A stretch of 64,000 nt of DNA from an uncultured Erysipelotrichaceae bacterium (GTDB lineage: Bacteria; Bacillota_I; Bacilli_A; RF39; UBA660): NCBI GenBank assembly GCA_963535465.1, contig CAUSWF010000002.1, positions 64,606 to 128,605 on the forward strand, read 5' to 3'. Shown piece after piece: positions 3,856 through 55,193 of this stretch (position 1 is the stretch's first letter; every line of letters starts with the position of its first letter). Position numbers and translations under genes: made by a program. Under the pieces are notes generated by a model that was given only the letters and a program-made list of their open reading frames with translations, was not told the DNA's origin and did not search any database.

Positions 3856-4076
3856 AGTTTAATTAAATCCTTAGTATTAAAAATTGCTTCCTATAATTTA
3901 TTATCTGTTGAGAACCATCTACATTTAATTCCTCGAAGAATTGGTTCTTTATCAGCATTTAGATGCTTGAATATTGTTGTTTCTTTCTTTATTACCAGCA
4001 TAGTAGGTTTATTAGGAATATCCTATTTAAGCGTTACTATATCTCCAGGCATAAAGTATATTTTATCATTTATCAT
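3852..4076 (-). CDS. Small DUF2158/YodC-like protein (74 aa), recoded
   Basis: ATG 4076-4074, TGA 3854-3852 (ATGA overlap with the next gene). Two in-frame TAGs. GDIVTLK(TAG)D...TMLV...IKCRWF resembles the GDxVxLKSGGPxMTV...CxWF pattern recalled from memory. Confidence 0.45.
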
Positions 4077-4662
4077 TATTATTAAATCTTTCTGTTAGTC
4101 CAGAGTTAAAAATAGCTATAAGACTATGTTCATTAACAAGAACAAAACCTTTACGATAAAATGGTATTATAGTTTCAGATGGTTTACGCCACATTACTAT
4201 ATCACCTACTTTAGTATAAGTGCATTTAGTTCCTACTTCCATAACTTTTCCTACTTTAATAAATGGATCTTCTTCATGCATAGCACCATCTTCTCTACTT
4301 TTATAAATAGGTGCTTTACCTCCAAGATCAACAATTAAACCATCAACTTTTTTAATTCGTTGAAAAGGATTAACTACAAAAGGAGAAATAATTATGCCTT
4401 CGTAAAGAGGTTTCATTTCTAAAGTATCTAGGTTAATGTCTTTACTATAATCTGTTAATTGTTTGTTATAATTATCTAAATTAGATAAATATTCATTTAC
4501 ATCTTCTTTATGCTTATTTTCTTTTTCTATAACAAGATCATCTATTGTTTGATCTTTATTTACTATGAAACTTTTAGAATCTTCTGAACTTACTTTGATT
4601 GCTACTTTTTCTTTATTAGACGGAGTAGTATTAACGTCTCTTCCATTAATTGTTCTTATCAT
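4066..4662 (-). CDS. Hypothetical protein, C-terminal half possibly GroES/Cpn10-like fold
   Basis: Intact ORF-track ORF. KPLYEGIII...GKVMEVG...KVGDIVMW loosely resembles the Cpn10 pattern. Weak. Confidence 0.4.
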   Translation of the reverse strand: MIRTINGRDVNTTPSNKEKVAIKVSSEDSKSFIVNKDQTIDDLVIEKENKHKEDVNEYLSNLDNYNKQLTDYSKDINLDTLEMKPLYEGIIISPFVVNPFQRIKKVDGLIVDLGGKAPIYKSREDGAMHEEDPFIKVGKVMEVGTKCTYTKVGDIVMWRKPSETIIPFYRKGFVLVNEHSLIAIFNSGLTERFNNNDK

Positions 4663-4663
4663 A

Positions 4664-4903
4664 TTACCATTTATTACTAGGACATTTTTCTTCTTTTACA
4701 GAAGTTTTTAAATTGATAAAACATCCACATAGACCACATATTTTTTGATTATCTATTACCTCTAAATATTTACATCTATTACAATACTTTAATCTATTAA
4801 AAGAAAGCTCTTTATTTTTTCCAATAGTATAATTGAATAAACCTTTTATTATATGTTTAATTTTCGTTGGAAAATTCTCCATAATATTTTTTAGCTGCTT
4901 CAT
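4664..4903 (-). CDS. Small Cys-rich (zinc-ribbon-like) protein
   Basis: ORF-track ORF with CNRC...CGLCGC...CPSNKW. Paralogous to 5474..5740. Confidence 0.5.
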   Translation of the reverse strand: MKQLKNIMENFPTKIKHIIKGLFNYTIGKNKELSFNRLKYCNRCKYLEVIDNQKICGLCGCFINLKTSVKEEKCPSNKW

Positions 4904-5480
4904 TCCTAGCTTTAACAGCTTCTTCTAATGTATCATAACGTCCAATATATTTAGTTTTATTATTTAATGTAATTTGGGCAGTCCACTTATTTTTATCTTT
5001 TGAAAAATATACACCTTTATGTCCAGATGTATTATTTTTTGGGACAGTACAATTACATAAATTTTGTTGGTTTGTACAAATTCTTAGATTGCATTTTCTA
5101 TTATCTAACCCATTATGATTGATATGATCTATCAATATTTTTGGATCAGTAATATTTAAAATATACCTATGCAATCTTCTAAATTGTTTATTATTAGAAG
5201 TACAATAATATGTATTTCTTTGCAGATCTGATTTATGCCATCTTATAGCTTTTACTTTTTCTATATCTTCTATATCTATTAAAGCTTTTCCACATATTTC
5301 ATTATCCCTATTTATTAAAAATATTTCAGCATGATCGTCAACTATTTCTATATGGTTTGTTTTATCTTTATACGAATATTTAAAAATTTTTCCGTATCTT
5401 CTTATTTGTGTATAATGTTTAGAACATAATCCATTAGCACAAACTTTTTTACCACATCCTTCAATTTTACATATTACCAT
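4857..5480 (-). CDS. HNH homing endonuclease with C-terminal AP2 DNA-binding domain
   Basis: DHINHNGLDNRKCNLRICTNQQN (HNH) followed by SGHKGVYFSKDKNKWTAQI...GRYDTLEEAVKARNEAAKKYYGEF (AP2). Confidence 0.8.
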   Translation of the reverse strand: MVICKIEGCGKKVCANGLCSKHYTQIRRYGKIFKYSYKDKTNHIEIVDDHAEIFLINRDNEICGKALIDIEDIEKVKAIRWHKSDLQRNTYYCTSNNKQFRRLHRYILNITDPKILIDHINHNGLDNRKCNLRICTNQQNLCNCTVPKNNTSGHKGVYFSKDKNKWTAQITLNNKTKYIGRYDTLEEAVKARNEAAKKYYGEFSNEN

Positions 5481-5740
5481 TGTTCACAAGGGCAAACACT
5501 ATCCCTATTTTTTGTTTTATATTTTAAAACACAGCCGCATCCTTTAAAATAACCATCTTTCTTTTCTAAACTAACATCTTTTGTTTTAGGATTCATATAT
5601 AATTTAGGATTACATATTCCTCCGAACTCATCCTTATATAAAGGACATTTTTTACATATATCTATTCTTATTTTAGATATATCCTTATTAAGACCAAGTA
5701 ATTCATTTACATGACCTTTTATTATATTGCCAACTTCCAT
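5474..5740 (-). CDS. Small Cys-rich (zinc-ribbon-like) protein
   Basis: CKKCPLY...GGIC...GCGCVLKYKTKNRDSVCPCEQW. Paralog of 4664..4903. Confidence 0.5.
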   Translation of the reverse strand: MEVGNIIKGHVNELLGLNKDISKIRIDICKKCPLYKDEFGGICNPKLYMNPKTKDVSLEKKDGYFKGCGCVLKYKTKNRDSVCPCEQW

Positions 5741-5776
5741 AATGTTTGTTTATTATCCTATTTTCTGATGATAATC

Positions 5777-7693
5777 TTAATATTCTATCGGTTTAAGTTT
5801 GGCTAATTTTTCTTGTTTAAAAACAGACTTTTTATAAAATTTTAGCATTGATTCTACTTCTTTCTTTAAATAAGGTAAATGATAAACTGTTTGATTATCA
5901 TTATGATCAAAGTGTACTAATATTAAATCTTTAATAGTATATTCTGGATTAATTTTTTGTAACATCCATGCATAAGTAGATAACTGTAAAGCATAATGCC
6001 AGTAATTGCAATCTTCCAAAGTGTTCAATGGATACTTCATTTTAACAGAACTACGAGTTTTAGTATCAAAGCCACTATGTTGTTTGATTTCTTTATTAGT
6101 ATTATGTGTAATTATACATTTATTAGTAACTAAAAAAGTATGTAAAGGGCTGTCTACTTCTAAACATTGTGTTGGAATAGTTTCTGTAATTTCTACTTTA
6201 TTAATATTTCTAAATGAATTTTTATCTATTTTTGGAAATTCAATTTCTTGATTTCTTATTAAAAAAGGATTTAATCCATTAGTTGAGAAACATACATCCC
6301 AAGCAATAAATTCTTTACCATTACATTTTTTTATTACTTCAAAAACAGTAGATTTTATACCTAATGTTCCTAATAATTTTACAGTACAATCTCTTTGCCA
6401 TTCTTGGCCCGTAGACATTACAAAACGTTTTCTTTTAGGATGATAATAACCATCAGTATCCATTAATCCTCTTAATAAGTCTAATCTTTGATTAAATGAA
6501 GCTGTATAATACTCTTCTGGAATATGTTTATTTTTTAAAAGATTCATTTTATTTAATAAAGTTCTTAATCCATAAACAGTCCTCATTTCAGTATTTTCTC
6601 TATCAGGATTATGTTGGGCATTTTCCCCTATATCAAAGCCACGATGTTTTAGTTCATCCCATAATTTAGATTGACTTGCTTGCGTAATAATACCACAATC
6701 TTTTGAACCATCACCTAACCAAACTCCTAATAAATAAGGATCTATTAGTAAATCTTTAGTTGGAGTATTAATAGGTTTTGGATTTAGTATTTTAGGAATT
6801 GTATAAGAATTTCTAGTATAAGTTTGCATATAATTATAAAGTTCCTTTGTAGTTATTACTCCTTTAGTATAAGGTGTTTTTTTACTTTGATTTTTAAATG
6901 ATACTTCCCAACGGTGATCTTCATCAGCTACTATAGTGTCTCCGTTATCAAAAGTTATTTTGAAGCATGGATTATTATGTATAGATGATTTATGCAAAAT
7001 TCGTGTAGGATTACCGTCTCCATCAAAAATAACATCCCCTTCTTTTACAGCTCCTATAGTAGTCCATCCAGAATTTGTTAATATTTCTGTGTCTAAAGGT
7101 AATCCTTTCCAATCCATGACTGTTATTTCATTACCTTGTTTAACTAATAAATCAATCTGTCCTGCAATTCTTAGCATGTTATCAGGAGAAGTACGAGAAA
7201 TTAAGTATTCAGGATATACTCCATTTTCTAAATCTAACGCAGTTCTTCCTTTATCGCATATAAATTTACCTCCTACACCAAATTTCTTTAGTGATACATT
7301 AGCACCCATCTTATACATACTTTGCTCTAGATCTGAATGTATTTTAGTACCTCTTTCACAAGATTCTCTATTAGTTTTATCCCATTCATCTAAAATACCT
7401 TGTTGTGCTTTATTAAAATCAAGTTCAGTAATATCATACGTACTTAAAAGTTCTTTAGGTATTTTGTGTGTATTCAACAAAGATTTTCTTTCTATTTTCC
7501 AAGCATCTGAGGGAATTAACTTTTCTAATGCCTTATATCCAGACCAAAAATCTTTATCAAAGGGTTGAGCAAACTTTTCTATTAAAGTTGTTACTGAAAT
7601 AAATCTATCATTTGTATCTGTATTCCAGTATACATGGTCATTTTCACTGAATGCAATGCTTCCATTCTGTTTGTCTATTTTCATATTATTCAT
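5777..7693 (-). CDS. PD-(D/E)XK (RecB/Cas4-like) nuclease interrupted by an intein
   Basis: Extein motifs are ERGTKIHSDLE, GQIDLL...VMDWK|..|TNK (D-x-K-T restored on splicing) and YALQLSTYAWML (QxxxY). Residues 197-531 are intein-like. Confidence 0.8.
   Translation of the reverse strand: MNNMKIDKQNGSIAFSENDHVYWNTDTNDRFISVTTLIEKFAQPFDKDFWSGYKALEKLIPSDAWKIERKSLLNTHKIPKELLSTYDITELDFNKAQQGILDEWDKTNRESCERGTKIHSDLEQSMYKMGANVSLKKFGVGGKFICDKGRTALDLENGVYPEYLISRTSPDNMLRIAGQIDLLVKQGNEITVMDWKGLPLDTEILTNSGWTTIGAVKEGDVIFDGDGNPTRILHKSSIHNNPCFKITFDNGDTIVADEDHRWEVSFKNQSKKTPYTKGVITTKELYNYMQTYTRNSYTIPKILNPKPINTPTKDLLIDPYLLGVWLGDGSKDCGIITQASQSKLWDELKHRGFDIGENAQHNPDRENTEMRTVYGLRTLLNKMNLLKNKHIPEEYYTASFNQRLDLLRGLMDTDGYYHPKRKRFVMSTGQEWQRDCTVKLLGTLGIKSTVFEVIKKCNGKEFIAWDVCFSTNGLNPFLIRNQEIEFPKIDKNSFRNINKVEITETIPTQCLEVDSPLHTFLVTNKCIITHNTNKEIKQHSGFDTKTRSSVKMKYPLNTLEDCNYWHYALQLSTYAWMLQKINPEYTIKDLILVHFDHNDNQTVYHLPYLKKEVESMLKFYKKSVFKQEKLAKLKPIEY
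6101..7105 (-). mobile_element. Intein (335 aa) with LAGLIDADG homing-endonuclease domain; class-3-like WCT signature
   Basis: Block A is GLPLDTEILT (Gly, not Cys/Ser, at position 1). Block B is TIVADEDHRW (W two residues after His). LAGLIDADG motifs are LLGVWLGDGS and LLRGLMDTDGYY. Block F is TQCLEVDSPLHTFLV (Cys where Asp is usual). Block G is IITHN followed by Thr+1. Confidence 0.75.
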
Positions 7694-15780: not shown

Positions 15781-15782
15781 AG

Positions 15783-15870
15783 TTGCCTCGCTAGGATTCG
15801 AACCCAGATTGACGCCCTCAGAAGGCTACAGATTTAGAGTCTGCCGTAATAACCATTATACTACAAGGCA
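15783..15870 (-). tRNA. Suppressor tRNA, anticodon CUA (reads TAG), 88 nt with long variable arm (type II architecture)
   Basis: Reverse complement: TGCCTTG TA GTATAATGGTTATTAC G GCAGA CTCTAAA TCTGT AGCCTTCTGAGGGCGTCAAT CTGGG TTCGAAT CCTAG CGAGGCA A. It has a 7-bp acceptor stem (U1-A72), a 7-nt loop with C34 U35 A36, and A73. Confidence 0.85.
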
Positions 15871-15876
15871 TTAAAG

Positions 15877-15948
15877 TTATCCCACTAGGATTCGAACCCA
15901 GACTAAGAGGGTTAGAGCCTCCTGTGCTAGCCGTTACACCATAGGACA
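15877..15948 (-). tRNA. Suppressor tRNA, anticodon CUA (reads TAG), 72 nt, tRNA-Gln-like
   Basis: Reverse complement: TGTCCTA TG GTGTAACGGCTAGCAC A GGAGG CTCTAAC CCTCT TAGT CTGGG TTCGAAT CCTAG TGGGATA A. U1-A72 is present, and the D arm is nearly identical to the phage tRNA-Gln(UUG) at 31788..31858. Confidence 0.85.
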
Positions 15949-19799: not shown

Positions 19800-19901
19800 A
19801 TGGATAAAAGAATCGTCATCATTGAACCAGACGGACGTGTTGCCGTGTTCAATGATAGAGGGGCTTTCCTCGCTTACTTAGAAAGTAAGAAAGAGGCGTA
19901 G
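19800..19901 (+). CDS. Small hypothetical protein (33 aa), island
   Basis: ATG 19800 gives MDKRIVIIEPDGRVAVFNDRGAFLAYLESKKEA. It ends in TAG at 19899-19901. Confidence 0.35.
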   Translation: MDKRIVIIEPDGRVAVFNDRGAFLAYLESKKEA

Positions 19902-20027
19902 TCTTCTCGAGTTGTGTTATGCCACACAACGTGTAGACAAAAGGCACCGAGTTCACTTGCTCTCGTAAAAGCAAGTACACTTTTAACAACCAGAAGTTGC
20001 GCACGACACGAATCAGTGCATAAAGTT

Positions 20028-20537
20028 ATGCAGATCGCAAATAACTTTTCAGAGAGAACTTTCGCAGCAGCATCTTTGCTGTCAGCTGGTAGCTCATTTA
20101 AGATTGTAAAGGTTGACATCTTTACAATCGCAGGTTCAACCAACAGCTACGTTGGCATTGAACTTGAAGGTCAAGAGCGTAAACCTGGCTTGCGTTCCTT
20201 GATCTCTAAGGGGCAATTAGGTCAACCTGTTACCTTTAAAGGTGGCAGAATGACAACTGCTAAGGACCAAACTGTTATCCGTAACGAAGGCACATTCGTT
20301 ACAGAGTTTAAGGATTGGTTGGCAGCTAATCCTGCAGCTACCAACAAGACTGTTTGCGAGCACTGGACCAAGGTGCTTACAGGCAAGTACCTGAATTGCG
20401 GATTCGGTTCCGCGATCATCAACGAGTACAACAAGGTACGTTGTACCCTCGCACTCTCAGTGTCAGATCAGCCTGATGCTGAGTTTACAAAGTTAACCGC
20501 AGAGCAAGAGACAGCTCTGCAGTATGCATCTATCTAA
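20028..20537 (+). CDS. Hypothetical protein (169 aa), island
   Basis: In-frame ATG 20028 within track ORF 19914..20537. The upstream 19902-20026 is hairpin-rich (gttgtg..cacaac; acttgc..gcaagt) and more likely a leader. Confidence 0.5.
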   Translation: MQIANNFSERTFAAASLLSAGSSFKIVKVDIFTIAGSTNSYVGIELEGQERKPGLRSLISKGQLGQPVTFKGGRMTTAKDQTVIRNEGTFVTEFKDWLAANPAATNKTVCEHWTKVLTGKYLNCGFGSAIINEYNKVRCTLALSVSDQPDAEFTKLTAEQETALQYASI

Positions 20538-25267: not shown

Positions 25268-25353
25268 GGAGATTTAAGCCTAATTGGTAAGGCAGCAGTT
25301 TGCTAAACTGCCAGTAATCGTAGTAATATGATGTATAGGTCCTATAATCTCCA
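25268..25353 (+). tRNA. Aberrant tRNA-like element (Ser-GCU-like) lacking a canonical T arm
   Basis: Perfect acceptor GGAGATT/AATCTCC. D arm GCC TAATTGGTAA GGC. Anticodon arm GCAGT TTGCTAA ACTGC. Extra arm ATCGTA-GTAA-TATGAT. The T arm is replaced by the mini-hairpin tATAGGTCCTATa. Confidence 0.45.
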
Positions 25354-27966: not shown

Positions 27967-28194
27967 ATGAAAAAGTTTAAAGGACACGTATTACCAGATG
28001 ATTTATTTTATATGATTGTATCATATAGTGAAAAAACTAAATGGCAATGGTTTAAAGATAATAATTTAACTATTCCTGAAGATTTTGGTTTTTCATTAGT
28101 TAAGAAAATATCTAAAGAACAATTGAATGATTTAATTAATTATGCTGTTAAATATAATATAGATAACATTAAATATGAAACTGAAGACTATTAA
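27967..28194 (+). CDS. Small hypothetical protein, paralog of 25376..25585
   Basis: ORF-track ORF. It follows a tRNA, as its paralog does. Confidence 0.5.
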   Translation: MKKFKGHVLPDDLFYMIVSYSEKTKWQWFKDNNLTIPEDFGFSLVKKISKEQLNDLINYAVKYNIDNIKYETEDY

Positions 28195-28558
28195 AAAATA
28201 TTTATTTAACGAAATTAATTTACTTACAGATAAAAAATGTAAGCCAGCACAAAATAGTAATTTATTGTTAATGTTCAGTGAACATAAAAAATATAGAAAA
28301 CCGTTCAACGGTTTAAATTTTTATAGAAAAAGATGTAATTTTTATGATACATCTGAAGCTTGTGAACTAATGGCTGAACATTTTTGGGAATTTGAAAAAT
28401 ATGAATGGTTTCAATTAATGATATTAATTAATGAATTACCCCTTGAATATTCTGGAGTTCCATTTAAATTAAAAGCTTATGCCAACGCATATTGTGATTG
28501 GTTTAAAAGAAATTTACCTGAATTATGGGAAGATTATAAAGAAGCACATAGAGAATAA
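28175..28558 (+). CDS. Hypothetical protein
   Basis: ORF-track ORF. Confidence 0.5.
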   Translation: MKLKTIKKYLFNEINLLTDKKCKPAQNSNLLLMFSEHKKYRKPFNGLNFYRKRCNFYDTSEACELMAEHFWEFEKYEWFQLMILINELPLEYSGVPFKLKAYANAYCDWFKRNLPELWEDYKEAHRE

Positions 28559-28766: not shown

Positions 28767-29540
28767 ATGAATCTTTTTAAAAAGAAAAAATATAAAATTC
28801 TAAAAGATGATTTTAGAATAATTGATGGTATTAAAGTTTATAGAATACAAGCTTTAAAATCATTTGCTAATGTAAAGAAAGGCGATTTAGGAGGATTTAT
28901 ACAATCTGAAGAAAATCTTTCACAACAAAATACTTGTTGGATATATGATGTAGCTATAGTTAAAGATGAAGTTAAAGTTCTAGACGATGCTAAAGTTTTT
29001 TCAAATTCTATATTAAGAGGTGTATTTACAGTAGAAGATGCTTGTAGTATTGTTGATTCCACTATTAAAGTTAAATTATGTGGTAGTATAAAAGATGGTA
29101 TACATCTTTGCGAAACTAATATAGATTCATATACTATGACACTTAAGACTGGAGTATTAAATAATAATGATATATATGCTACCAATTTAACAGTAATCGA
29201 CTCTTCTTTAAAATATGTAACTTGCAATGAAAGTAATTTATATTTTAATAATAGTTATTTATATGATGTAAAAATTAATAATTCTGTAACTTTAAATCAA
29301 GTAATGGCAAAACAAACTGAAATATCTTCAAATTCTGATATTTTTGTTTTTTTAAATAATTGGTCTAGCTTACGTTATTTTAATTACGTAGTTCCTAATA
29401 AGACTTGGTATGTTGGCTGTTTTATAGGTTCAGGAGAAGAACTTATTAAAAAAGCTTATAAAGACAGTGAATTATCTGGAAAAATGTATGAGAAATATGT
29501 TAAGTTTATAGAAAAACTAAATGAAGATAAGAACCCTTAG
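28767..29540 (+). CDS. Hypothetical protein (257 aa), repetitive beta-rich sequence
   Basis: ORF-track ORF. It ends in TAG (29538-40). Confidence 0.5.
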   Translation: MNLFKKKKYKILKDDFRIIDGIKVYRIQALKSFANVKKGDLGGFIQSEENLSQQNTCWIYDVAIVKDEVKVLDDAKVFSNSILRGVFTVEDACSIVDSTIKVKLCGSIKDGIHLCETNIDSYTMTLKTGVLNNNDIYATNLTVIDSSLKYVTCNESNLYFNNSYLYDVKINNSVTLNQVMAKQTEISSNSDIFVFLNNWSSLRYFNYVVPNKTWYVGCFIGSGEELIKKAYKDSELSGKMYEKYVKFIEKLNEDKNP

Positions 29541-35954: not shown

Positions 35955-36273
35955 GGGGCTGTTTGGTTTTGATTGTATAAGGAAGTAAAAATAACATGCA
36001 AAGACTGATGGAAAGACATCAATTCAAATTAAATGCTAAGGTTATTCCTATGAACAGCTTTGCTGTTCGCATTGCAGCTTAATGACTGCCGAGCTGGTAA
36101 CTTGCTTAGGAACAGAAAAGTTACAAATTTATAATTAAGTTATCCCTTCTTTAAAAAGGAAATTTTCATATTGCTAAATAATATAAAGATGATGTAACAT
36201 CTATAAAAAACTAAGCATGTAAAATTATTTGAGGTATTTATACAAGACGAGAGTTCGAATCTCTCCAGCTCCA
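35955..36273 (+). ncRNA. ssrA: tmRNA (SsrA), phage-encoded
   Basis: The 5' GGGGCTG pairs with the 3' CAGCTCC, followed by A. T arm GAGAG TTCGAAT CTCTC. The conserved ACTAAGCATGTA element is present. The tag frame 36035-36082 ends GCAGCTTAATGACTGCC, as in the E. coli GCAGCUUAAUAACCUGC, and the predicted tag is AKVIPMNSFAVRIAA. Confidence 0.85.
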
Positions 36274-36374
36274 CTTTAGTTGGCTACTGACTACAAAATA
36301 GTAGATGACTTCTAGGGCCGTTCAACATGTAAACAACCTAGGTAATGGCATACCTGTTAAAATCAAAGCATGCT

Positions 36375-39183: not shown

Positions 39184-39602
39184 TAAATTATACAATTTAT
39201 ACAGACGGTGCTTATAAACCTAGTTTAAATGCTGGAGGAATAGGTATCGTCTTTTTACGTAATGGGCAAAAAGTTTTTGAGCATTCATCTAAATATAAAG
39301 ATACTACTAACCAAAGAATGGAAATGCAAGCTGTATTAGTTGCTCTAAATTCTATAATAAAAGAAATTGACTCTCTTACAATCATTACTGATAGCATGTA
39401 TGTAGTAGGAACTCTTACTAAAAACTGGCAACGAAAAACTAATAATGATTTATGGAATAAATTAGATATTGCTTTAAGTAAAGCTAAAAAATTAGTTAAA
39501 ACACCTATACAATTTAAGCATGTTAAAGGTCATAATGGGGATAAATATAATGAACAATGTGATAAATTAGCAAGTGAAGCATGTTATGAAATTGAATGTT
39601 GA
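39180..39602 (+). CDS. rnhA: Ribonuclease HI
   Basis: IYTDGA, NQRMEMQAV, IITDSMYV and HVKGHNGDKYNEQCDKLA give the DEDD catalytic pattern. ATG 39180 is preferred to the track TTG start at 39168. Confidence 0.8.
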   Translation: MINYTIYTDGAYKPSLNAGGIGIVFLRNGQKVFEHSSKYKDTTNQRMEMQAVLVALNSIIKEIDSLTIITDSMYVVGTLTKNWQRKTNNDLWNKLDIALSKAKKLVKTPIQFKHVKGHNGDKYNEQCDKLASEACYEIEC

Positions 39603-39876
39603 TTTTTTAGTTAAATTAGCTAGTAAATGTGGTAAAGTTTATGAAGAAGAAATAAACAAAGCAGTAGAAGAAGGTAAGTTAATTACAGCTGCAGATGTTG
39701 TTCTTTTTCTTTCTTTACTAACAGATGATATTGTTGGCGGTTACTGTAAAGCTACTAAGTCAGATTATAAAAGTTTATTTTTAGATTATATTAAGTTTTT
39801 ACAAGGAGTAAAAAAAGAAATTGAGCAGAGAAAAGAAATTAATAGAGAAATCGAAGATTCTAATAAGTCAAATTGA
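39574..39876 (+). CDS. Hypothetical protein
   Basis: ORF-track ORF. Confidence 0.45.
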   Translation: MKHVMKLNVDFLVKLASKCGKVYEEEINKAVEEGKLITAADVVLFLSLLTDDIVGGYCKATKSDYKSLFLDYIKFLQGVKKEIEQRKEINREIEDSNKSN

Positions 39877-41386: not shown

Positions 41387-41852
41387 GCATTTTGATGGTA
41401 AGGAACGTGAATTTACAGTTTGTATGGTGAGTATTTCTCCAGAAACAAACAACGATATGGAATCATATTACCAGAATATGGATGGAGATTATCTTTTTGA
41501 AAACGAATCTCATATCTATACTAAAGCATGTTCTAAAGGAATTATAGCAAAATGGGAACGCTATGTCAATTTTGGTATTTCTGTAAGAAATCCAAATGAT
41601 TCTTACAATGAAGACATTGCTAAGAAAATTGCTTATGGTAAGGCTAACAGTGTTAAAGGCTATACAGTAGCTTTTGATGATTTAGCTTTAATAAGTAAAG
41701 ATGTAGTTAATGCTCTCCTTAATAATTTTGTAAAAAAAGTTTCTAATGATCCTTCTTTAGCTATTCAGAACTATGAAGAACAAGAAGCATTATATAATGC
41801 TAAGAAAGCTAAAAAGGCTATGTTCAATAGTAATGACACGTTTTCAATATAA
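41346..41852 (+). CDS. Hypothetical protein
   Basis: ORF-track ORF. Confidence 0.5.
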   Translation: MKKEIVQYATGKFKHFDGKEREFTVCMVSISPETNNDMESYYQNMDGDYLFENESHIYTKACSKGIIAKWERYVNFGISVRNPNDSYNEDIAKKIAYGKANSVKGYTVAFDDLALISKDVVNALLNNFVKKVSNDPSLAIQNYEEQEALYNAKKAKKAMFNSNDTFSI

Positions 41853-42159
41853 CAAACTAATAGTATTAATTAGTATTACTGTTATTATATTCTTTGGTTT
41901 TTGGTACTATGGAAATTATAATAATAGTAATACTATAATACATCATTATAAAAAAGATTCTGTTTATTACCAAAAGCGGGATAGTTTGCATAAAGTTAAT
42001 GATACAATATCTACTAAAATACAAACAATAGAACATACTTATGAAAAGAAAATTGAAACTATTAAGCGTATGCCTATTGATTCCGCTTATATCTTTTGGG
42101 CAGACTATATCCAAAGATACAGGATTAATAATGACTCCGCAACAATTAAGAACTACTAA
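41833..42159 (+). CDS. N-terminally membrane-anchored protein
   Basis: ATG 41833 gives MTRFQYNKLIVLISITVIIFFGFWYY. This start is preferred to the track start at 41773. Confidence 0.45.
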   Translation: MTRFQYNKLIVLISITVIIFFGFWYYGNYNNSNTIIHHYKKDSVYYQKRDSLHKVNDTISTKIQTIEHTYEKKIETIKRMPIDSAYIFWADYIQRYRINNDSATIKNY

Positions 42160-42511: not shown

Positions 42512-42847
42512 ATGGATGTAGAGGATTCAAAATTCATAACTCTACTAACAAGAGTTGAGGCTATATTACATGATTCCTCAGGATACACTACTTACATATT
42601 TAAAAATATAGATGATAAAGCCTCTTTTTTATATAAATATATAATGTGTACAAGATATCCTAATTGGGAACATAGAGGTTTAAAGATTGGCGAAGAAGGA
42701 TTTTTAACTTATCAACCAGTAAATGAAGGGATTGATAAATGGTTTGATGGTTATAATTTAGTCCCTTATAAATTTTCAGCAAATAGGTTTATCAATTTTA
42801 TTAGTAAACCTAACGAAAAAATAATAGATAATAAATATATAATGTAG
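42512..42847 (+). CDS. Hypothetical protein
   Basis: ORF-track ORF. It ends in TAG. Confidence 0.45.
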   Translation: MDVEDSKFITLLTRVEAILHDSSGYTTYIFKNIDDKASFLYKYIMCTRYPNWEHRGLKIGEEGFLTYQPVNEGIDKWFDGYNLVPYKFSANRFINFISKPNEKIIDNKYIM

Positions 42848-48934: not shown

Positions 48935-49954
48935 ATGACATTAGATTTTACATTTGAACCAAAAATTACTAAGTCTTATTTACTTTCTAAATATTCAGAG
49001 GAAACTTATATGGAATATTATCTTGGAATAAAGGTAGCTAAAGGATTATTTTGTTCTCCTTTAAGAAAAGATAATACTCCTACTTGTTCTTTTTATAAAA
49101 ATAAATCTGGAGAACTTATATTTAAGGATTTTAATGGAAGTTTCTATGGTAACTTTGTAAATGTTGTTATGGAAAAATTCCACGTTAATTATCATCAAGC
49201 TTTAAAAATAATAGCAGAAGATTTTGGCTTATCTAATAAGCATGTTGATAGAGAAATTCAACCTATTAAACCAAGTACTACTGTTTTTAAAGATGAAGGT
49301 CCTGCAGATATAAGAATAGAGGTAAAAGACTTTACTATAGCTGAACTACAGTGGTGGGAAAGTTATGGTATTACTCCAGATATATTAAAAAAGTATAATG
49401 TCTATTCTTGTCAAAATGTATTTTTAAACGGAGATTTATTTAAAACAGAATATAAAGATAACTTTATGTTTGGTTATTATGGAGGTAAAAAAGATAAACT
49501 AGAATTATGGAGAATCTATTTTCCTAAACAATCTACTTATAGATTTCTTACTAATTGGCCAGCTAGAAAGATTCAGGGTTATAAACAACTTCCTAAAATA
49601 GGTAAATTGTGCGTTATTACAAAATCAATGAAAGATGTAATGTGTTTATATAGCTTAGGGATTAATGCAATAGCTCCAAATAGTGAGAATTTATTTATTT
49701 CTGATAGTGTATTAGAAGATCTAAAAAAGAGATTTAAATATATTGTCGTTTTTTATGATCATGACCTTCCTGGATTGCAGAATATGCAAAAAATAAAAAA
49801 TAAACATAAAGAACTTATTTATTTTTATATACCAAGACATTATAAAACAAAAGATATAAGCGACTTTCATAAAAAATATGGAAGAGATAAAACTTTGAAA
49901 TTTATTAAAGAAAGCATTTTAAAATTTAAAAAATATGAAGTAGAAAGAACTTAA
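48935..49954 (+). CDS. DNA primase (Toprim-type)
   Basis: N-terminal Cys cluster CSPLRKDNTPTCSFY. Toprim-like ITKSMKD and VFYDHDLPG (DxD). Confidence 0.55.
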   Translation: MTLDFTFEPKITKSYLLSKYSEETYMEYYLGIKVAKGLFCSPLRKDNTPTCSFYKNKSGELIFKDFNGSFYGNFVNVVMEKFHVNYHQALKIIAEDFGLSNKHVDREIQPIKPSTTVFKDEGPADIRIEVKDFTIAELQWWESYGITPDILKKYNVYSCQNVFLNGDLFKTEYKDNFMFGYYGGKKDKLELWRIYFPKQSTYRFLTNWPARKIQGYKQLPKIGKLCVITKSMKDVMCLYSLGINAIAPNSENLFISDSVLEDLKKRFKYIVVFYDHDLPGLQNMQKIKNKHKELIYFYIPRHYKTKDISDFHKKYGRDKTLKFIKESILKFKKYEVERT

Positions 49955-50534
49955 TACATCTTGTAGAATAACTTATCCTGATAAAACTACATTAGAATTT
50001 GAATCTTTAGAAGAAGCAGCTAAAGGAACTGAAGAGTATTTTAATTCTCATCCAGAATTACCTAAGAAATTCAGACCTATTTTATCTGTAAATTCTATTA
50101 AACTACGCTGTAATAAATCTACTCCTACAAAAGATGGAATATTATGCGAATGGTTAGATTCTCATACTAAAAAGTCATATCAAGCTAAGAAAAGTAAATC
50201 TAAAGGAAATAAATATGAATTACAAATAGTTCATGAGTTAACTAATATGGGATTTTCAGGATTAGTAACTTCTAGATCTCAAAATAGATTATTAGATAAT
50301 GCAAAAGTGGACATTGCAGAAACTGACGAAAAATTAAGTTGTTATATACAATGTAAAGCAACTAGTAATATGCCAAGTGTTTCTAATATAACTAATTCAT
50401 GTCCACTGAAAGATAGACCGTTATCTATATTTTGGAAAAAACAAGATCAATCAAAAGAAGAATATGTAATAATCCCAAAAGATTATTTCTATAATTTATT
50501 AGCTAAATATCATAAAAAAACTAACTACAAATGA
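49935..50534 (+). CDS. Nuclease-like protein whose only upstream ATG is followed by an in-frame TAG at codon 3
   Basis: ATG AAG TAG at 49935-49943. The frame is then open for 197 codons to TGA at 50532-34, and the next ATG is at 50247. The N-half LEFESLEEAAKGT...KDGILCEWL looks like a homing-endonuclease DNA-binding module. The C-half VDIAETDEKLSCYIQCK is PD-(D/E)xK-like. Confidence 0.45.
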
Positions 50535-50673
50535 TTGGATAATTAAAGGAGTTAGATTCTGAAACTTTTAATAAAATTTTATGGGTTAATACAAATAATG
50601 AAAAATGTACTATAATTCCAGAAGATTTCTTTTATAAGTTACTTGATGCTTATACTAAAATTAATAAAATATA

Positions 50674-50925
50674 ATGAAACAACAATGGTATGTAATTAGT
50701 TGGGGAGATATGAAAGAAGACCCAACTCAGATTCTTGCATATTATACCACTTCTGAAGAGAAAGCTCGAAAATATATATTGAATTATATATTGAATGAAC
50801 TATTACATAAATTAGCTGATATATCTGAATTTATAAATATGGATTGGGATACTGTGATAGAAGTGGTTAAAAATAAATATAATGTAAGTTTATCTTACAT
50901 GTTACACCTAGAAAATGATAAATAA
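50674..50925 (+). CDS. Hypothetical protein
   Basis: ORF-track ORF. Confidence 0.5.
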   Translation: MKQQWYVISWGDMKEDPTQILAYYTTSEEKARKYILNYILNELLHKLADISEFINMDWDTVIEVVKNKYNVSLSYMLHLENDK

Positions 50926-53648: not shown

Positions 53649-55193
53649 ATGACAAGACAAACAACTATTAATAAAGTAATTGATTTTCTAACTCGAATAA
53701 AAGAAGCAGGATATACAAATGTAAAACAATATTGTAAAGATTTTAATGAACCTTATTCTTCTTATGCTAATAATGTAAGTAAAATTATGAATGATGCTGA
53801 TGTTCATGATGATTATAAAAATACTATTAAAACATTAAAATCTGATATTAAATGTAATAATAAATCTAATAATTCTGTTATTAACTCTGAAAAACTTGAT
53901 TCGGATGATCGTGCTAATACAGAAATAGTGCGCGATGAAGAAGGTAAAGTACTTTATTATAAGTTTGAAATTTATCGTAGAGATAAATCTCCTGTAGTAG
54001 GACAACTTACACGTGAAGAAATGAATAGTGTGTATCGTCTTTATTCATACTATGGTGCTAATATTACTCAACGTGAAATTTCTCGCACTCTTCCAGAATA
54101 TTCTTTAGTTGATTTTAAACGCATTCTTAGAGTATTTAATATTACTAAAGCTTGTTCTCCTTTTGCACCTCATATGTTTGAGGAATATTCAGAAGAAGAA
54201 CTCAAGGATATGCACTTACGTTTAAAAGAAAATGACTTTCTTAAGAAACTTGAAAAAGATGAAATTAATGATTTACGTAAATTAAATACTAATTTAGCTA
54301 AAGAATTAAATAATTTTAAGACTAATGTACTTCAAAATGTAATTGATGCAGGTATTGAAATTAAAGATTCTAATTTTAAACCGCGTGAATTTACACAAAA
54401 AGAACCTAATACAAAGAATTTGATCATTTGGTTGTCTGATATGCATATTGGAGCATATAATGATGCTTTTGGTACATATAGTATTGTTGAATATAATAAA
54501 GAAGATATACAACATCGTCTTGATGTTATTGTTAGTAAGTTTGCAAATAAAACTTATACTAATATTTATGTAGTAAATTTGGGAGATTCTGTAGATTCCT
54601 TTAAGAAAGAAACTACAAGAGGTGAACACCCATTGCCATCTGTATGGAATGATAAAGAGATTTCAATGAATTATATAGAATTAATGAAACAATTCTTTGT
54701 AAATTTGCAAGCTAATACTCATTATACTAATATGACTTATCTGTGTATTGGTGAATCCAACCATGACGGTGACACGGGATGGCTTAATAATAAAATTCTT
54801 GAAGCTCACCTTCAGAATATGGGAATATATACTTATATTAGTAACTATTCTATTGATGTATTTGGTGTTGGTAATCATACATTTGTGTTTGCACATGGAA
54901 AAGATAACCAGAACCAATTTAAGAATTTCCCGCTTACTCTTAACGATAAAACAGATTTGTATTTTACACAATGGATGAATGAAAATAATGTTGTTGGTAA
55001 ATATAAATATGTAGTAAAAGGTGATTTACATCGTTTTGCTTATACTGTAGGTAATACTTTTGATTATATCAGTGTGGGTTCTCTTTATGGTAGCAGTAAT
55101 TGGATTACAGCTAACTTTGGTAATACTAAGTGGAGTATTAATTTTATGGAAATACAAGGTAATGACATGCAAATCGGAACAATCCGCGAGTAG
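53649..55193 (+). CDS. Protein with C-terminal calcineurin-like metallophosphoesterase domain
   Basis: WLSDMHIG, VVNLGDSVD, GESNHDG, FAHGKD and KGDLHRF. It ends in TAG (55191-93). Confidence 0.65.
   Translation: MTRQTTINKVIDFLTRIKEAGYTNVKQYCKDFNEPYSSYANNVSKIMNDADVHDDYKNTIKTLKSDIKCNNKSNNSVINSEKLDSDDRANTEIVRDEEGKVLYYKFEIYRRDKSPVVGQLTREEMNSVYRLYSYYGANITQREISRTLPEYSLVDFKRILRVFNITKACSPFAPHMFEEYSEEELKDMHLRLKENDFLKKLEKDEINDLRKLNTNLAKELNNFKTNVLQNVIDAGIEIKDSNFKPREFTQKEPNTKNLIIWLSDMHIGAYNDAFGTYSIVEYNKEDIQHRLDVIVSKFANKTYTNIYVVNLGDSVDSFKKETTRGEHPLPSVWNDKEISMNYIELMKQFFVNLQANTHYTNMTYLCIGESNHDGDTGWLNNKILEAHLQNMGIYTYISNYSIDVFGVGNHTFVFAHGKDNQNQFKNFPLTLNDKTDLYFTQWMNENNVVGKYKYVVKGDLHRFAYTVGNTFDYISVGSLYGSSNWITANFGNTKWSINFMEIQGNDMQIGTIRE

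Follow-up and report, generated by a model that had tools for sequence, protein, structure and literature searches.

Stop-codon recoding, in which TAG is read as glutamine (Gln) under genetic code 15, has been described for crAss-like and other gut phages, and a switch of code has been proposed for them (PMC7886860, 10.1101/2021.08.26.457843, PMC9523058). For crAss-like phages, proteomic data support the reading of TAG as Gln (PMC9523058), and according to a proposal by Borges et al., an intron endonuclease encoded inside an early gene is delayed by in-frame stops (10.1101/2021.08.26.457843). Some Zeta phages, in addition, keep the suppressor tRNA(CUA) despite "no apparent suppression" (PMC12386605). 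Here, we analyzed a 64,000-nucleotide (nt) stretch of contig CAUSWF010000002.1 (GenBank assembly GCA_963535465.1), hereafter the window, and within it a gene at positions 49935-50534 that encodes a predicted nuclease and has an in-frame TAG as its third codon. We refer to this TAG as the gate and to genes with such a TAG near their start as gated.

The window is a Zeta-type crAss-like phage, a placement made because DNA similarity to crAss-like phage primase genes, the 141-190 kb contigs of relatives, and the gene content all agree with the description by Yutin et al. (PMC7886860). Its late block, at 1-15.3 kilobases (kb), is rich in in-frame TAG (up to 22 in 380 codons), and 79 of the 172 Gln-type codons of eight late genes are TAG (46%). 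The genes on the plus strand from ∼18.6 to 64 kb have almost no in-frame TAG, and among sixteen early genes at 26-64 kb it accounts for 0 of 146 Gln-type codons, in agreement with a preliminary description of this DNA that had called the surroundings of the nuclease gene a standard-code region. Early genes stop at TAA in 53 cases, at TGA in 8, and at TAG in 3.

The nuclease frame, its start and its predicted product

The frame, which lies directly behind a primase gene, has the following features.

49935 to 50534, plus strand: gated nuclease gene, with ATG (49935-37), AAG (49938-40), TAG (49941-43), 196 sense codons (49944-50531), 199 codons in all, and TGA (50532-34); based on the sequence and on homologue P0001
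49935 to 49937, plus strand: start codon ATG, 17 nt upstream of the primase stop; based on homologue N termini and on an in-frame ATG in all 73 gated contexts
49941 to 49943, plus strand: putative amber gate, an in-frame TAG at codon 3, kept in independent contigs and in about 100 of 109 unique homologous genes
50247 to 50249, plus strand: Met105, the first standard start codon 3′ of the TAG

The preliminary description had reported ATG AAG TAG at 49935-43, a run of 197 open codons thought unlikely by chance, and no ATG, GTG, or TTG in the first 100 codons. The three triplets are as reported, and the long open frame stands with one correction, as it holds 196 sense codons and the figure of 197 includes the stop. 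At the window's G+C content of 27.9%, the stop probability is 0.089 per codon; 196 consecutive open codons would then arise by chance with a probability of 1.2e-8, and ∼0.0016 such runs are expected in six frames of the entire window. No ATG, GTG, or TTG occurs in frame from codon 4 to codon 104, the next start being the ATG at 50247 (codon 105), and near-cognate codons before Met105 are confined to ATA or ATT at codons 12 (an ATA), 49, 55, 69, and 98. Under the standard code, only a 95-amino-acid (aa) open reading frame (ORF), from 50247, can be called in the gene. The Gln-type codons of the full nuclease gene are the one TAG and six CAA. The nuclease ORF shares 20 nt with the 3′ end of the primase gene, and the two frames differ by +1. 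The sequence ATG AAG TAG was identical in seven independent ENA and Logan contigs, some of which have diverged flanking DNA, and folding of 49905-50024 predicted no RNA structure at the gate (z = +1.41).

We located the N terminus of the protein with a homologue search that covered 5.8 billion proteins. More than 120 relatives of 175-199 aa were found, spanning 94-100% of the read-through product. Their N termini (MKQKELNTS, MKNQTINTA, MSKQNLNTS, etc.) line up with the ATG at 49935, most simply described as M-(A/S/K)-K... a few residues ahead of a conserved LNTS motif, and the N-terminal half is conserved throughout. The comparison with homologues that the preliminary description had named as the way to find the true start thus places it at 49935; the relatives do not start at the Met of 50247, and the 100 codons upstream of it are conserved. 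The database protein P0001, 199 aa long and 99% identical to the window product, was called with TAG read as Q. Residue Q3 of P0001 and of a second database protein, P0004, is TAG in the DNA of all seven encoding contigs; the Gln at this place in the closest database proteins is an artifact, present because the genes were called with code 15. A product started at Met105 would be without the DNA-binding domain and without Glu95, which is part of the predicted active site. Since the homologue N termini lie at the ATG at 49935 and Glu95 lies upstream of Met105, the TAG must be read through to give the complete protein. We also compared codons 1-92 with a 93%-identical relative (L005) and found nine synonymous and four nonsynonymous codon differences. 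The synonymous ones include codons 7 and 9, just 3′ of the TAG, and therefore point to purifying selection at the protein level on the frame from its very beginning.

The read-through product is predicted to have two domains, encoded on the plus strand as listed.

49962 to 50153, plus strand: predicted N-terminal DNA-binding domain, a NUMOD/I-HmuI-like helix-turn-helix, residues about 10-73
50160 to 50531, plus strand: predicted C-terminal Hjc-like PD-(D/E)xK nuclease domain
50217-19, 50310-12, 50349-51, and 50355-57, plus strand: predicted catalytic positions E95, D126, Q139, and K141, respectively

An AlphaFold2 model with a mean predicted local distance difference test (pLDDT) score of 87.5 (∼75 for residues 1-10) shows a predicted restriction-endonuclease-like fold that is closest to Hjc. 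The four catalytic positions are invariant in 36 homologues, with Gln rather than Glu at the third. The protein matched PHROG 244 (E = 6e-8) and, weakly, Pfam PDDEXK_15 (E = 0.024, 15 bits against a cut-off of 27), and a profile of the family gave weak Hjc matches among PDB sequences (E = 0.03-0.09). Two observations of the preliminary description were borne out here: the resemblance of the N-terminal half to DNA-binding modules of homing endonucleases, where we found a module of the NUMOD/I-HmuI type, and a nuclease-like D...QCK motif in the C-terminal half, where D126, Q139, and K141 are invariant. We interpret the product, on the strength of the model, as an I-HmuI-like DNA-binding domain joined to an Hjc-like PD-(D/E)xK nuclease that is predicted to resolve junctions, and whose substrate would be branched DNA or four-way junctions. 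It agrees with the account by Yutin et al., who mention a "PDDEXK_b" nuclease in the replication block of crAss phages (PMC7886860).

Conservation of the amber codon in the gene family

We further investigated whether related genes carry the same TAG by reading the gene 5′ end in every one of ∼165 related loci, which came from two IMG/VR scans, ENA and Logan contigs, and two GenBank records and held 109 unique genes. About 100 of the 109 were gated, with exactly one TAG, at codons 3-7 and 2-6 codons after the ATG, and in almost all loci this TAG stood 0-3 codons ahead of a conserved L(N/D)TS motif. Gated starts, with # for TAG, include MK#KELNTS, MSK#NLNTS, MSKSN#NLNTA, MR#KKNLNTA, MAKKS#KDLDTS, MGKT#LNTS, MAKAK#LNTG, MS#RELDTS, and MAKRT#TELDTS. 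Across the 109 unique genes, the first 10 codons contained 101 TAG, 3 CAA, and no CAG (TAG in 101 of 104), while the other 19,231 codons contained 6 TAG, 386 CAA, and 53 CAG (TAG in 6 of 445). We clustered 87 genes, taken from the window and the first 88 loci, by sequence identity, and all members were gated in 32 of 38 clusters at 90%, in 22 of 27 at 80%, and in 10 of 12 at 60%.

The surroundings of the TAG were far less uniform, as seen in the 73 distinct gated nucleotide contexts on which the following statistics rest. The flanking codons were of 16 kinds before and 23 kinds after the TAG, and the TAG stood at varying distances from both the ATG and the LNTS motif. No conserved DNA motif was found around the TAG in these contexts, in which no nucleotide was conserved, and no conserved slippery or start-like codon followed it, only a few of the 23 following codons being TTG, GTG, or CTG. 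The next base was A in 42, G in 19, C in 9, and T in 3, that is, a purine in 61 of the 73. An in-frame ATG stood 2-6 codons 5′ of the TAG in every context. Relative to the TAG, the stop of the upstream gene ranged in position from -31 to +22 nt and fell in one or the other of the two remaining frames, and 18 contexts had no long upstream ORF with an end close by. These variable surroundings exclude both a DNA motif and an overlap constraint as the cause of the conservation. Since the N-terminal tail is free to vary and a single T-to-C change turns TAG into a Gln codon, the persistence of the TAG instead indicates selection for a stop-type codon. As judged by comparative sequence analysis, then, the TAG is kept by family-wide selection as a stop-type codon, in the manner of a suppressor-dependent amber gate.

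In the nuclease family, TAG appears to be read as Gln; the rare TAGs in gene bodies align with Gln in relatives (LSV#ALKIR versus LSVQALKIR), and one ungated relative (L086) has Q in place of the gate (MAKKQVDL versus MAKK#VEL). A TGA version of the gate was not seen in TGA-recoding relatives among ∼160 loci, which represent closest relatives only. By tblastn against GenBank phages (INPHARED), the gene was found in two unannotated records only, both gated. One of them, MT835492.1 (121.6 kb), has the same TAG-rich and TAG-free layout as the window: in a 58-kb block almost free of in-frame TAG, no gene but the gated nuclease has a TAG at its N terminus, and on the opposite strand lie late genes with up to 128 TAGs.

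A long upstream ORF, primase where identified, ends beside the nuclease gene in 55 of the 73 contexts, and this arrangement marks the gene as a syntenic core gene and partner of the primase, not a mobile element. The resemblance noted in the preliminary description might suggest a homing endonuclease, for which a sporadic, mobile distribution would be expected, with presence differing among close relatives and insertion into or next to a target gene. We rejected this identity for the nuclease in view of the conserved synteny; the mobile insertions are other genes that lie alongside.

Other candidates for gated genes did not hold up. In the window, ORFs at 28142-28558, 41746-42159, 39520-39876, 19800-20537, and 4664-4936 (minus strand) look like chance upstream extensions of genes with their own ATG after the TAG, and the N-terminal TAGs of neighboring ORFs in L067, L084, L048, L070, and L088 give the same impression. 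No second gated family was found in the window or among the relatives' neighboring ORFs. Our literature searches turned up no earlier account of a lone, position-restricted TAG at the N terminus that a core gene family keeps within a standard-code block.

Proposed decoding of the amber codon and rival explanations

Two tRNA(CUA) genes that could decode the gate are present in the window.

15876 to 15948, minus strand: tRNA(CUA) number 1, 73 nt, Gln-like, with U1-A72 (ARAGORN; Rfam tRNA, 54 bits; best alignment with the phage's own tRNA-Gln(UUG))
15782 to 15870, minus strand: tRNA(CUA) number 2, 89 nt, with a long variable arm (ARAGORN; Rfam tRNA, 57.7 bits; alignment)

The second has the same T arm and U1-A72 pair as the adjacent first. 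Both lie in a TAG-free minus-strand operon that runs from 18180 down to 15782 and adjoins the start of the early block. An exact-pattern scan of IMG/VR for tRNA(CUA) gave 101 places, including six contigs with gated nucleases, a result that shows presence only. Pfam assignment of the neighbors and of a 490-aa gene upstream of the suppressor tRNAs was mostly uninformative.

We propose that ribosomes start at the ATG at 49935 and meet UAG at codon 3. While the host's standard code applies, release factor 1 would end translation after Met-Lys, giving no nuclease and no partial protein. Once the phage tRNA(CUA) have accumulated, UAG would be read as an amino acid, probably Gln, through the same switch that would open the TAG-rich late genes, and the full 199-aa nuclease would be made in an amount that depends on how efficient the suppression is. 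The one-codon gate would in this way delay, and probably also limit, a DNA-cutting enzyme whose message belongs to the early/middle replication operon and whose early expression may be harmful. The enzyme is most plausibly needed late, for resolving branched DNA before packaging, like T4 endonuclease VII. The preliminary description had suggested an early-region gene gated by the late decoding state, perhaps to silence a potentially toxic endonuclease until late, and the comparative data support the gate. A gate at the extreme N terminus would avoid wasteful or dominant-negative fragments, and the disordered tail in which it is placed may tolerate any inserted residue. We consider a gate with suppressor-tRNA-dependent, late production of the nuclease to be the probable explanation of the data. 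The further proposal, that the TAG is an evolved one-codon checkpoint linking the synthesis of a junction-resolving nuclease with the change of code in the phage, is more tentative, and we would put it at somewhat below an even chance.

Several points weigh against a gate of this kind. About 10% of lineages are ungated (e.g., L050, L064, L082, and L086), and some ungated phages still use TAG recoding; the gate is therefore dispensable. With its long variable arm, tRNA(CUA) number 2 is of doubtful identity; the two tRNAs might insert different amino acids at TAG, or number 2 might contain an insertion. The tRNA(CUA) operon could be transcribed early, in which case the gate would limit dosage more than set timing. 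Finally, we infer both the timing and the read-through itself.

A dosage limiter in place of a timer would mean that suppressors, or read-through by near-cognate tRNAs, are always available and that the TAG only lowers the yield. That the tRNA(CUA) genes belong to a transcription unit free of TAG, adjoining the beginning of the early block, would agree with this, as would the presence of a single TAG per gene instead of several and the purine after the TAG in 61 of 73 contexts. A purine after an amber codon favors suppression over termination in Escherichia coli. On the other hand, the complete avoidance of TAG in the 48-kb early block (0 of 146 Gln-type codons) is hard to explain with suppression from the start, and a weak start site would lower the yield more simply. 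We regard a dosage limiter as unlikely to replace the timer, although the two are compatible and not exclusive. Far less likely, in our view, is that the TAG is a neutral Gln codon that arose by drift and has no regulatory role. Such use would be in keeping with the established reading of TAG as Gln in crAss-like phages (PMC9523058, PMC7886860), and one relative does have a Gln codon at the equivalent place. Neutral use would, however, have to account for TAG supplying 101 of the 104 Gln-type codons in the first 10 codons and 6 of 445 in the rest, in a tail that otherwise varies (16 codons before and 23 after the TAG), and for its survival in 10 of 12 deep clusters at 40-60% protein identity, where a neutral codon would not last. 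A similar N-terminal enrichment of TAG was not found in the unrelated genes examined.

The TAG might also never be decoded, if ribosomes made the nuclease by reinitiating past the primase stop, by shifting out of the primase frame into a primase-nuclease fusion, or by using a non-canonical downstream start. The window itself lends some color to this, as its primase stop lies only 9 nt past the TAG, the two frames differ by +1, and an ATA is found at codon 12. The preliminary description had offered CUA suppressors or reinitiation at the primase stop as the ways to a full-length product; the former survives, with read-through required and two tRNA(CUA) genes in the window, and the latter does not. 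We rejected frameshifting and reinitiation from the primase because the geometry varies between lineages, the upstream stop changing position and frame and being absent nearby in 18 of 73 contexts. Moreover, the TAG is followed by no conserved slippery or start-like codon, no RNA structure surrounds the site (z = +1.41), and an ATG 2-6 codons 5′ of the TAG, which such models do not require, is present in every gated lineage. We judge an undecoded TAG about as improbable as a neutral one, if not slightly more so. A decaying pseudogene, i.e., a remnant resembling a homing endonuclease, or a sequencing error would leave only the 95-aa ORF from 50247 to matter. This is the one ORF callable under the standard code, and the 3′ flank does bear the scar of a deleted endonuclease gene (see below). 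Yet the same TAG occurs in seven independent assemblies, the frame is open for 196 codons, and purifying selection, invariant catalytic residues, a pLDDT of 87.5, and conserved synteny all speak for a working gene, which reduces the chance of decay or error to almost nothing.

Neighboring genes and comparison with known systems

The nuclease gene is flanked by the following features.

48935 to 49954, plus strand: DnaG-type primase, whose last 20 nt overlap the nuclease start and whose TAA (49952-54) lies 9 nt after the gate (PHROG 12622, E = 4e-44; Pfam Toprim_2)
50512 to 50674, plus strand: scar of a deleted homing-endonuclease gene, with an older copy of the nuclease C-terminal tail (...CTIIPEDFFYKLLDAYTKINKI and stop, about 50586-50674); based on relatives L002 and L003

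We examined 412 neighboring plus-strand ORFs in the same loci (103,560 codons) and found 181 TAGs in 53 of them, mostly of two classes. The first class consists of TAG-rich genes that encode 340-390 aa and are inserted immediately behind the nuclease gene, with DUF723 zinc-ribbon repeats and a Vsr-like nuclease motif; these mobile endonuclease genes of relatives contain 7-14 TAGs each, and the variable insertions beside the nuclease comprise both DUF723/Vsr-like and GIY-YIG genes. In the second class, an upstream, primase-sized ORF has a TAG a few codons ahead of its TAA or TGA. In 15 of 55 contexts, about a quarter, the upstream early gene apparently stops at TAG, which is consistent with standard decoding early in infection. 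Upstream ORFs of 336-391 aa, i.e., primase-sized, that apparently end in TAG were seen in L015-L019, L023, L024, L031, L041-L045, L048, L055, L077, L089, L094, L100, and L102, with a back-up TAA or TGA usually 1-10 codons on (48 codons in L041). After a code switch, those upstream proteins would gain a short tail reaching into the start region of the nuclease gene. Early genes of the window with a TAG and then a nearby second stop are found at 28767-29540, 42512-42847, and 53649-55193.

The scar is not part of the gate and accounts for the gap 3′ of the nuclease gene. Two relatives that are 99.5% identical, L002 (3578-4690) and L003 (2091-3203), carry at window position 50548/50549 an insertion of 950 nt encoding a 370-aa endonuclease-like protein with a DUF723 zinc ribbon, a Vsr-like part, and 7-8 in-frame TAGs. 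The inserted ORF begins inside the 3′ end of the nuclease gene and finishes in a leftover nuclease tail; in the window, its ATG is mutated (CATGAA to CATAAA), and the old C-terminal tail remains as a non-coding remnant. Compared with the 93%-identical L005 (3276-3601), the window has the nuclease domain at 50210-50585 swapped for another variant of the family (YELQIV...YIQCKAT in the window versus LEYHIR...NIQAKNY in L005) and an extra 83-aa ORF at 50674-50925 (differing segment, 50676-50920). In the ungated L077 (1834-2500; IMGVR_UViG_3300028797_000900), a GIY-YIG homing endonuclease gene sits at the nuclease 5′ end and begins "MGKT#V", the gated start that the nuclease has in sister lineages of L077. 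The insertion seems to have captured start and gate.

We note some further features of the blocks. A phage transfer-messenger RNA (tmRNA) gene lies at 35955-36276 (plus strand) among the tRNA genes of the TAG-free block (Rfam RF00023, 72.8 bits, E = 2e-26, full length; ARAGORN tag peptide AKVIPMNSFAVRIAA) and might handle ribosomes that run to message ends when TAG stops are read through. An extra tRNA-like gene at 25268-25353 (plus strand; Rfam, 42 bits), not reported by ARAGORN, aligns as a long-arm (type II) tRNA and is located beside tRNA-Ser. The TAG-rich late region contains a TAG-free island at 4066-7693 (minus strand), which includes a 638-aa protein with weak LAGLIDADG and PD-(D/E)XK matches and may be a mobile or early-type insertion. 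Between 18000 and 22000, where the minus-strand unit of the suppressor tRNAs and the plus-strand block join, the G+C fraction is 0.36-0.37 compared with ∼0.27 elsewhere, and the ORFs (e.g., 19800-20537) are of odd composition.

If the proposed gate is real, the code switch would be a general regulatory signal that reaches single genes inside the standard-code early block. The idea of code-switch timing in gut phages rests mostly on block-wise codon statistics, and the gated nuclease would allow a clean test that turns on a single codon. Standard gene callers overlook single-codon gates, cutting the gene short or starting it late; "MDTSV..." and "LDTSV...", for example, are database N termini with the look of late starts imposed by the stop. 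As a consequence for annotation, a core replication/recombination enzyme of an abundant group of gut phages is easily overlooked, since under the standard code it appears as 95 aa or with an artificial start. A search for the pattern of ATG, 1-5 codons, and TAG ahead of a long open frame could reveal more gated genes, which may be targets of "orphan" suppressor tRNAs. Hidden gates may also explain in part why some Zeta phages keep tRNA(CUA) with no apparent suppression (PMC12386605).

The systems closest to this locus are the code-switch phages, with which it shares a phage tRNA(CUA) that would decode TAG, a replication block in standard code adjoining a late block rich in TAG, and the proposal that recoding acts as a delay. 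It differs from them in having one TAG, at codons 3-7, in a gene that belongs to the standard-code replication block and whose body avoids TAG. The code-switch literature examined describes enrichment that is block-wise or gene-wide, whereas here a single TAG is confined to the N terminus across a whole gene family. Stop-codon recoding as a timer has already been proposed (10.1101/2021.08.26.457843). The group I intron endonuclease of Agate phage (Borges et al.) is alike in being an early-region nuclease thought to be held back by recoded stops. It differs in that TGA is read as Trp, the preference is gene-wide, and the gene is mobile, in contrast to a single N-terminal TAG in a syntenic core gene by the primase. 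The pattern seen in Agate recurs instead in the mobile endonuclease genes beside the nuclease in relatives, with their several TAGs.

In T4, hairpins that hide the ribosome-binding site keep late proteins encoded on early polycistronic transcripts untranslated (I-TevI/II/III, segB, soc, and e; PMC2988022), and endonuclease VII acts late, at packaging (PMC3016281). The parallel with the present locus consists in an early mRNA, late-only translation, and DNA-cutting enzymes. Gene 49 of T4, which encodes endonuclease VII, is under the same hairpin regulation. T4 employs an RNA hairpin and a late promoter, whereas here a stop codon and a suppressor tRNA would serve, at a site with no predicted RNA structure. 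These phages may therefore have converged on keeping DNA-cutting enzymes silent by means other than the RNA hairpins of T4. As to the enzyme itself, archaeal Hjc/Hje and Hjc-like phage resolvases (PDB 1gef, 1ob8, 2wcw, and 7bgs) share the E...D...(E/Q)xK positions and gave the weak profile matches described above. Unlike them, the nuclease studied here, known from sequence and model, has an extra N-terminal helix-turn-helix of the homing-endonuclease type and Gln for Glu at the third position.

Stops are also read as sense in RNA viruses and phage Qbeta (A1 protein), where near-cognate host tRNAs do so at a low, fixed rate and a C-terminal extension is added. In both cases, a stop inside a functional ORF is read as sense to give a product, but the nuclease gene would depend on a virus-encoded suppressor tRNA, its stop is N-terminal, and no product would be made without read-through. 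Engineered amber-suppression switches combine an early amber codon with a suppressor tRNA supplied in trans for tight control of toxic genes, and the gate described here would be their natural, evolutionarily conserved counterpart.

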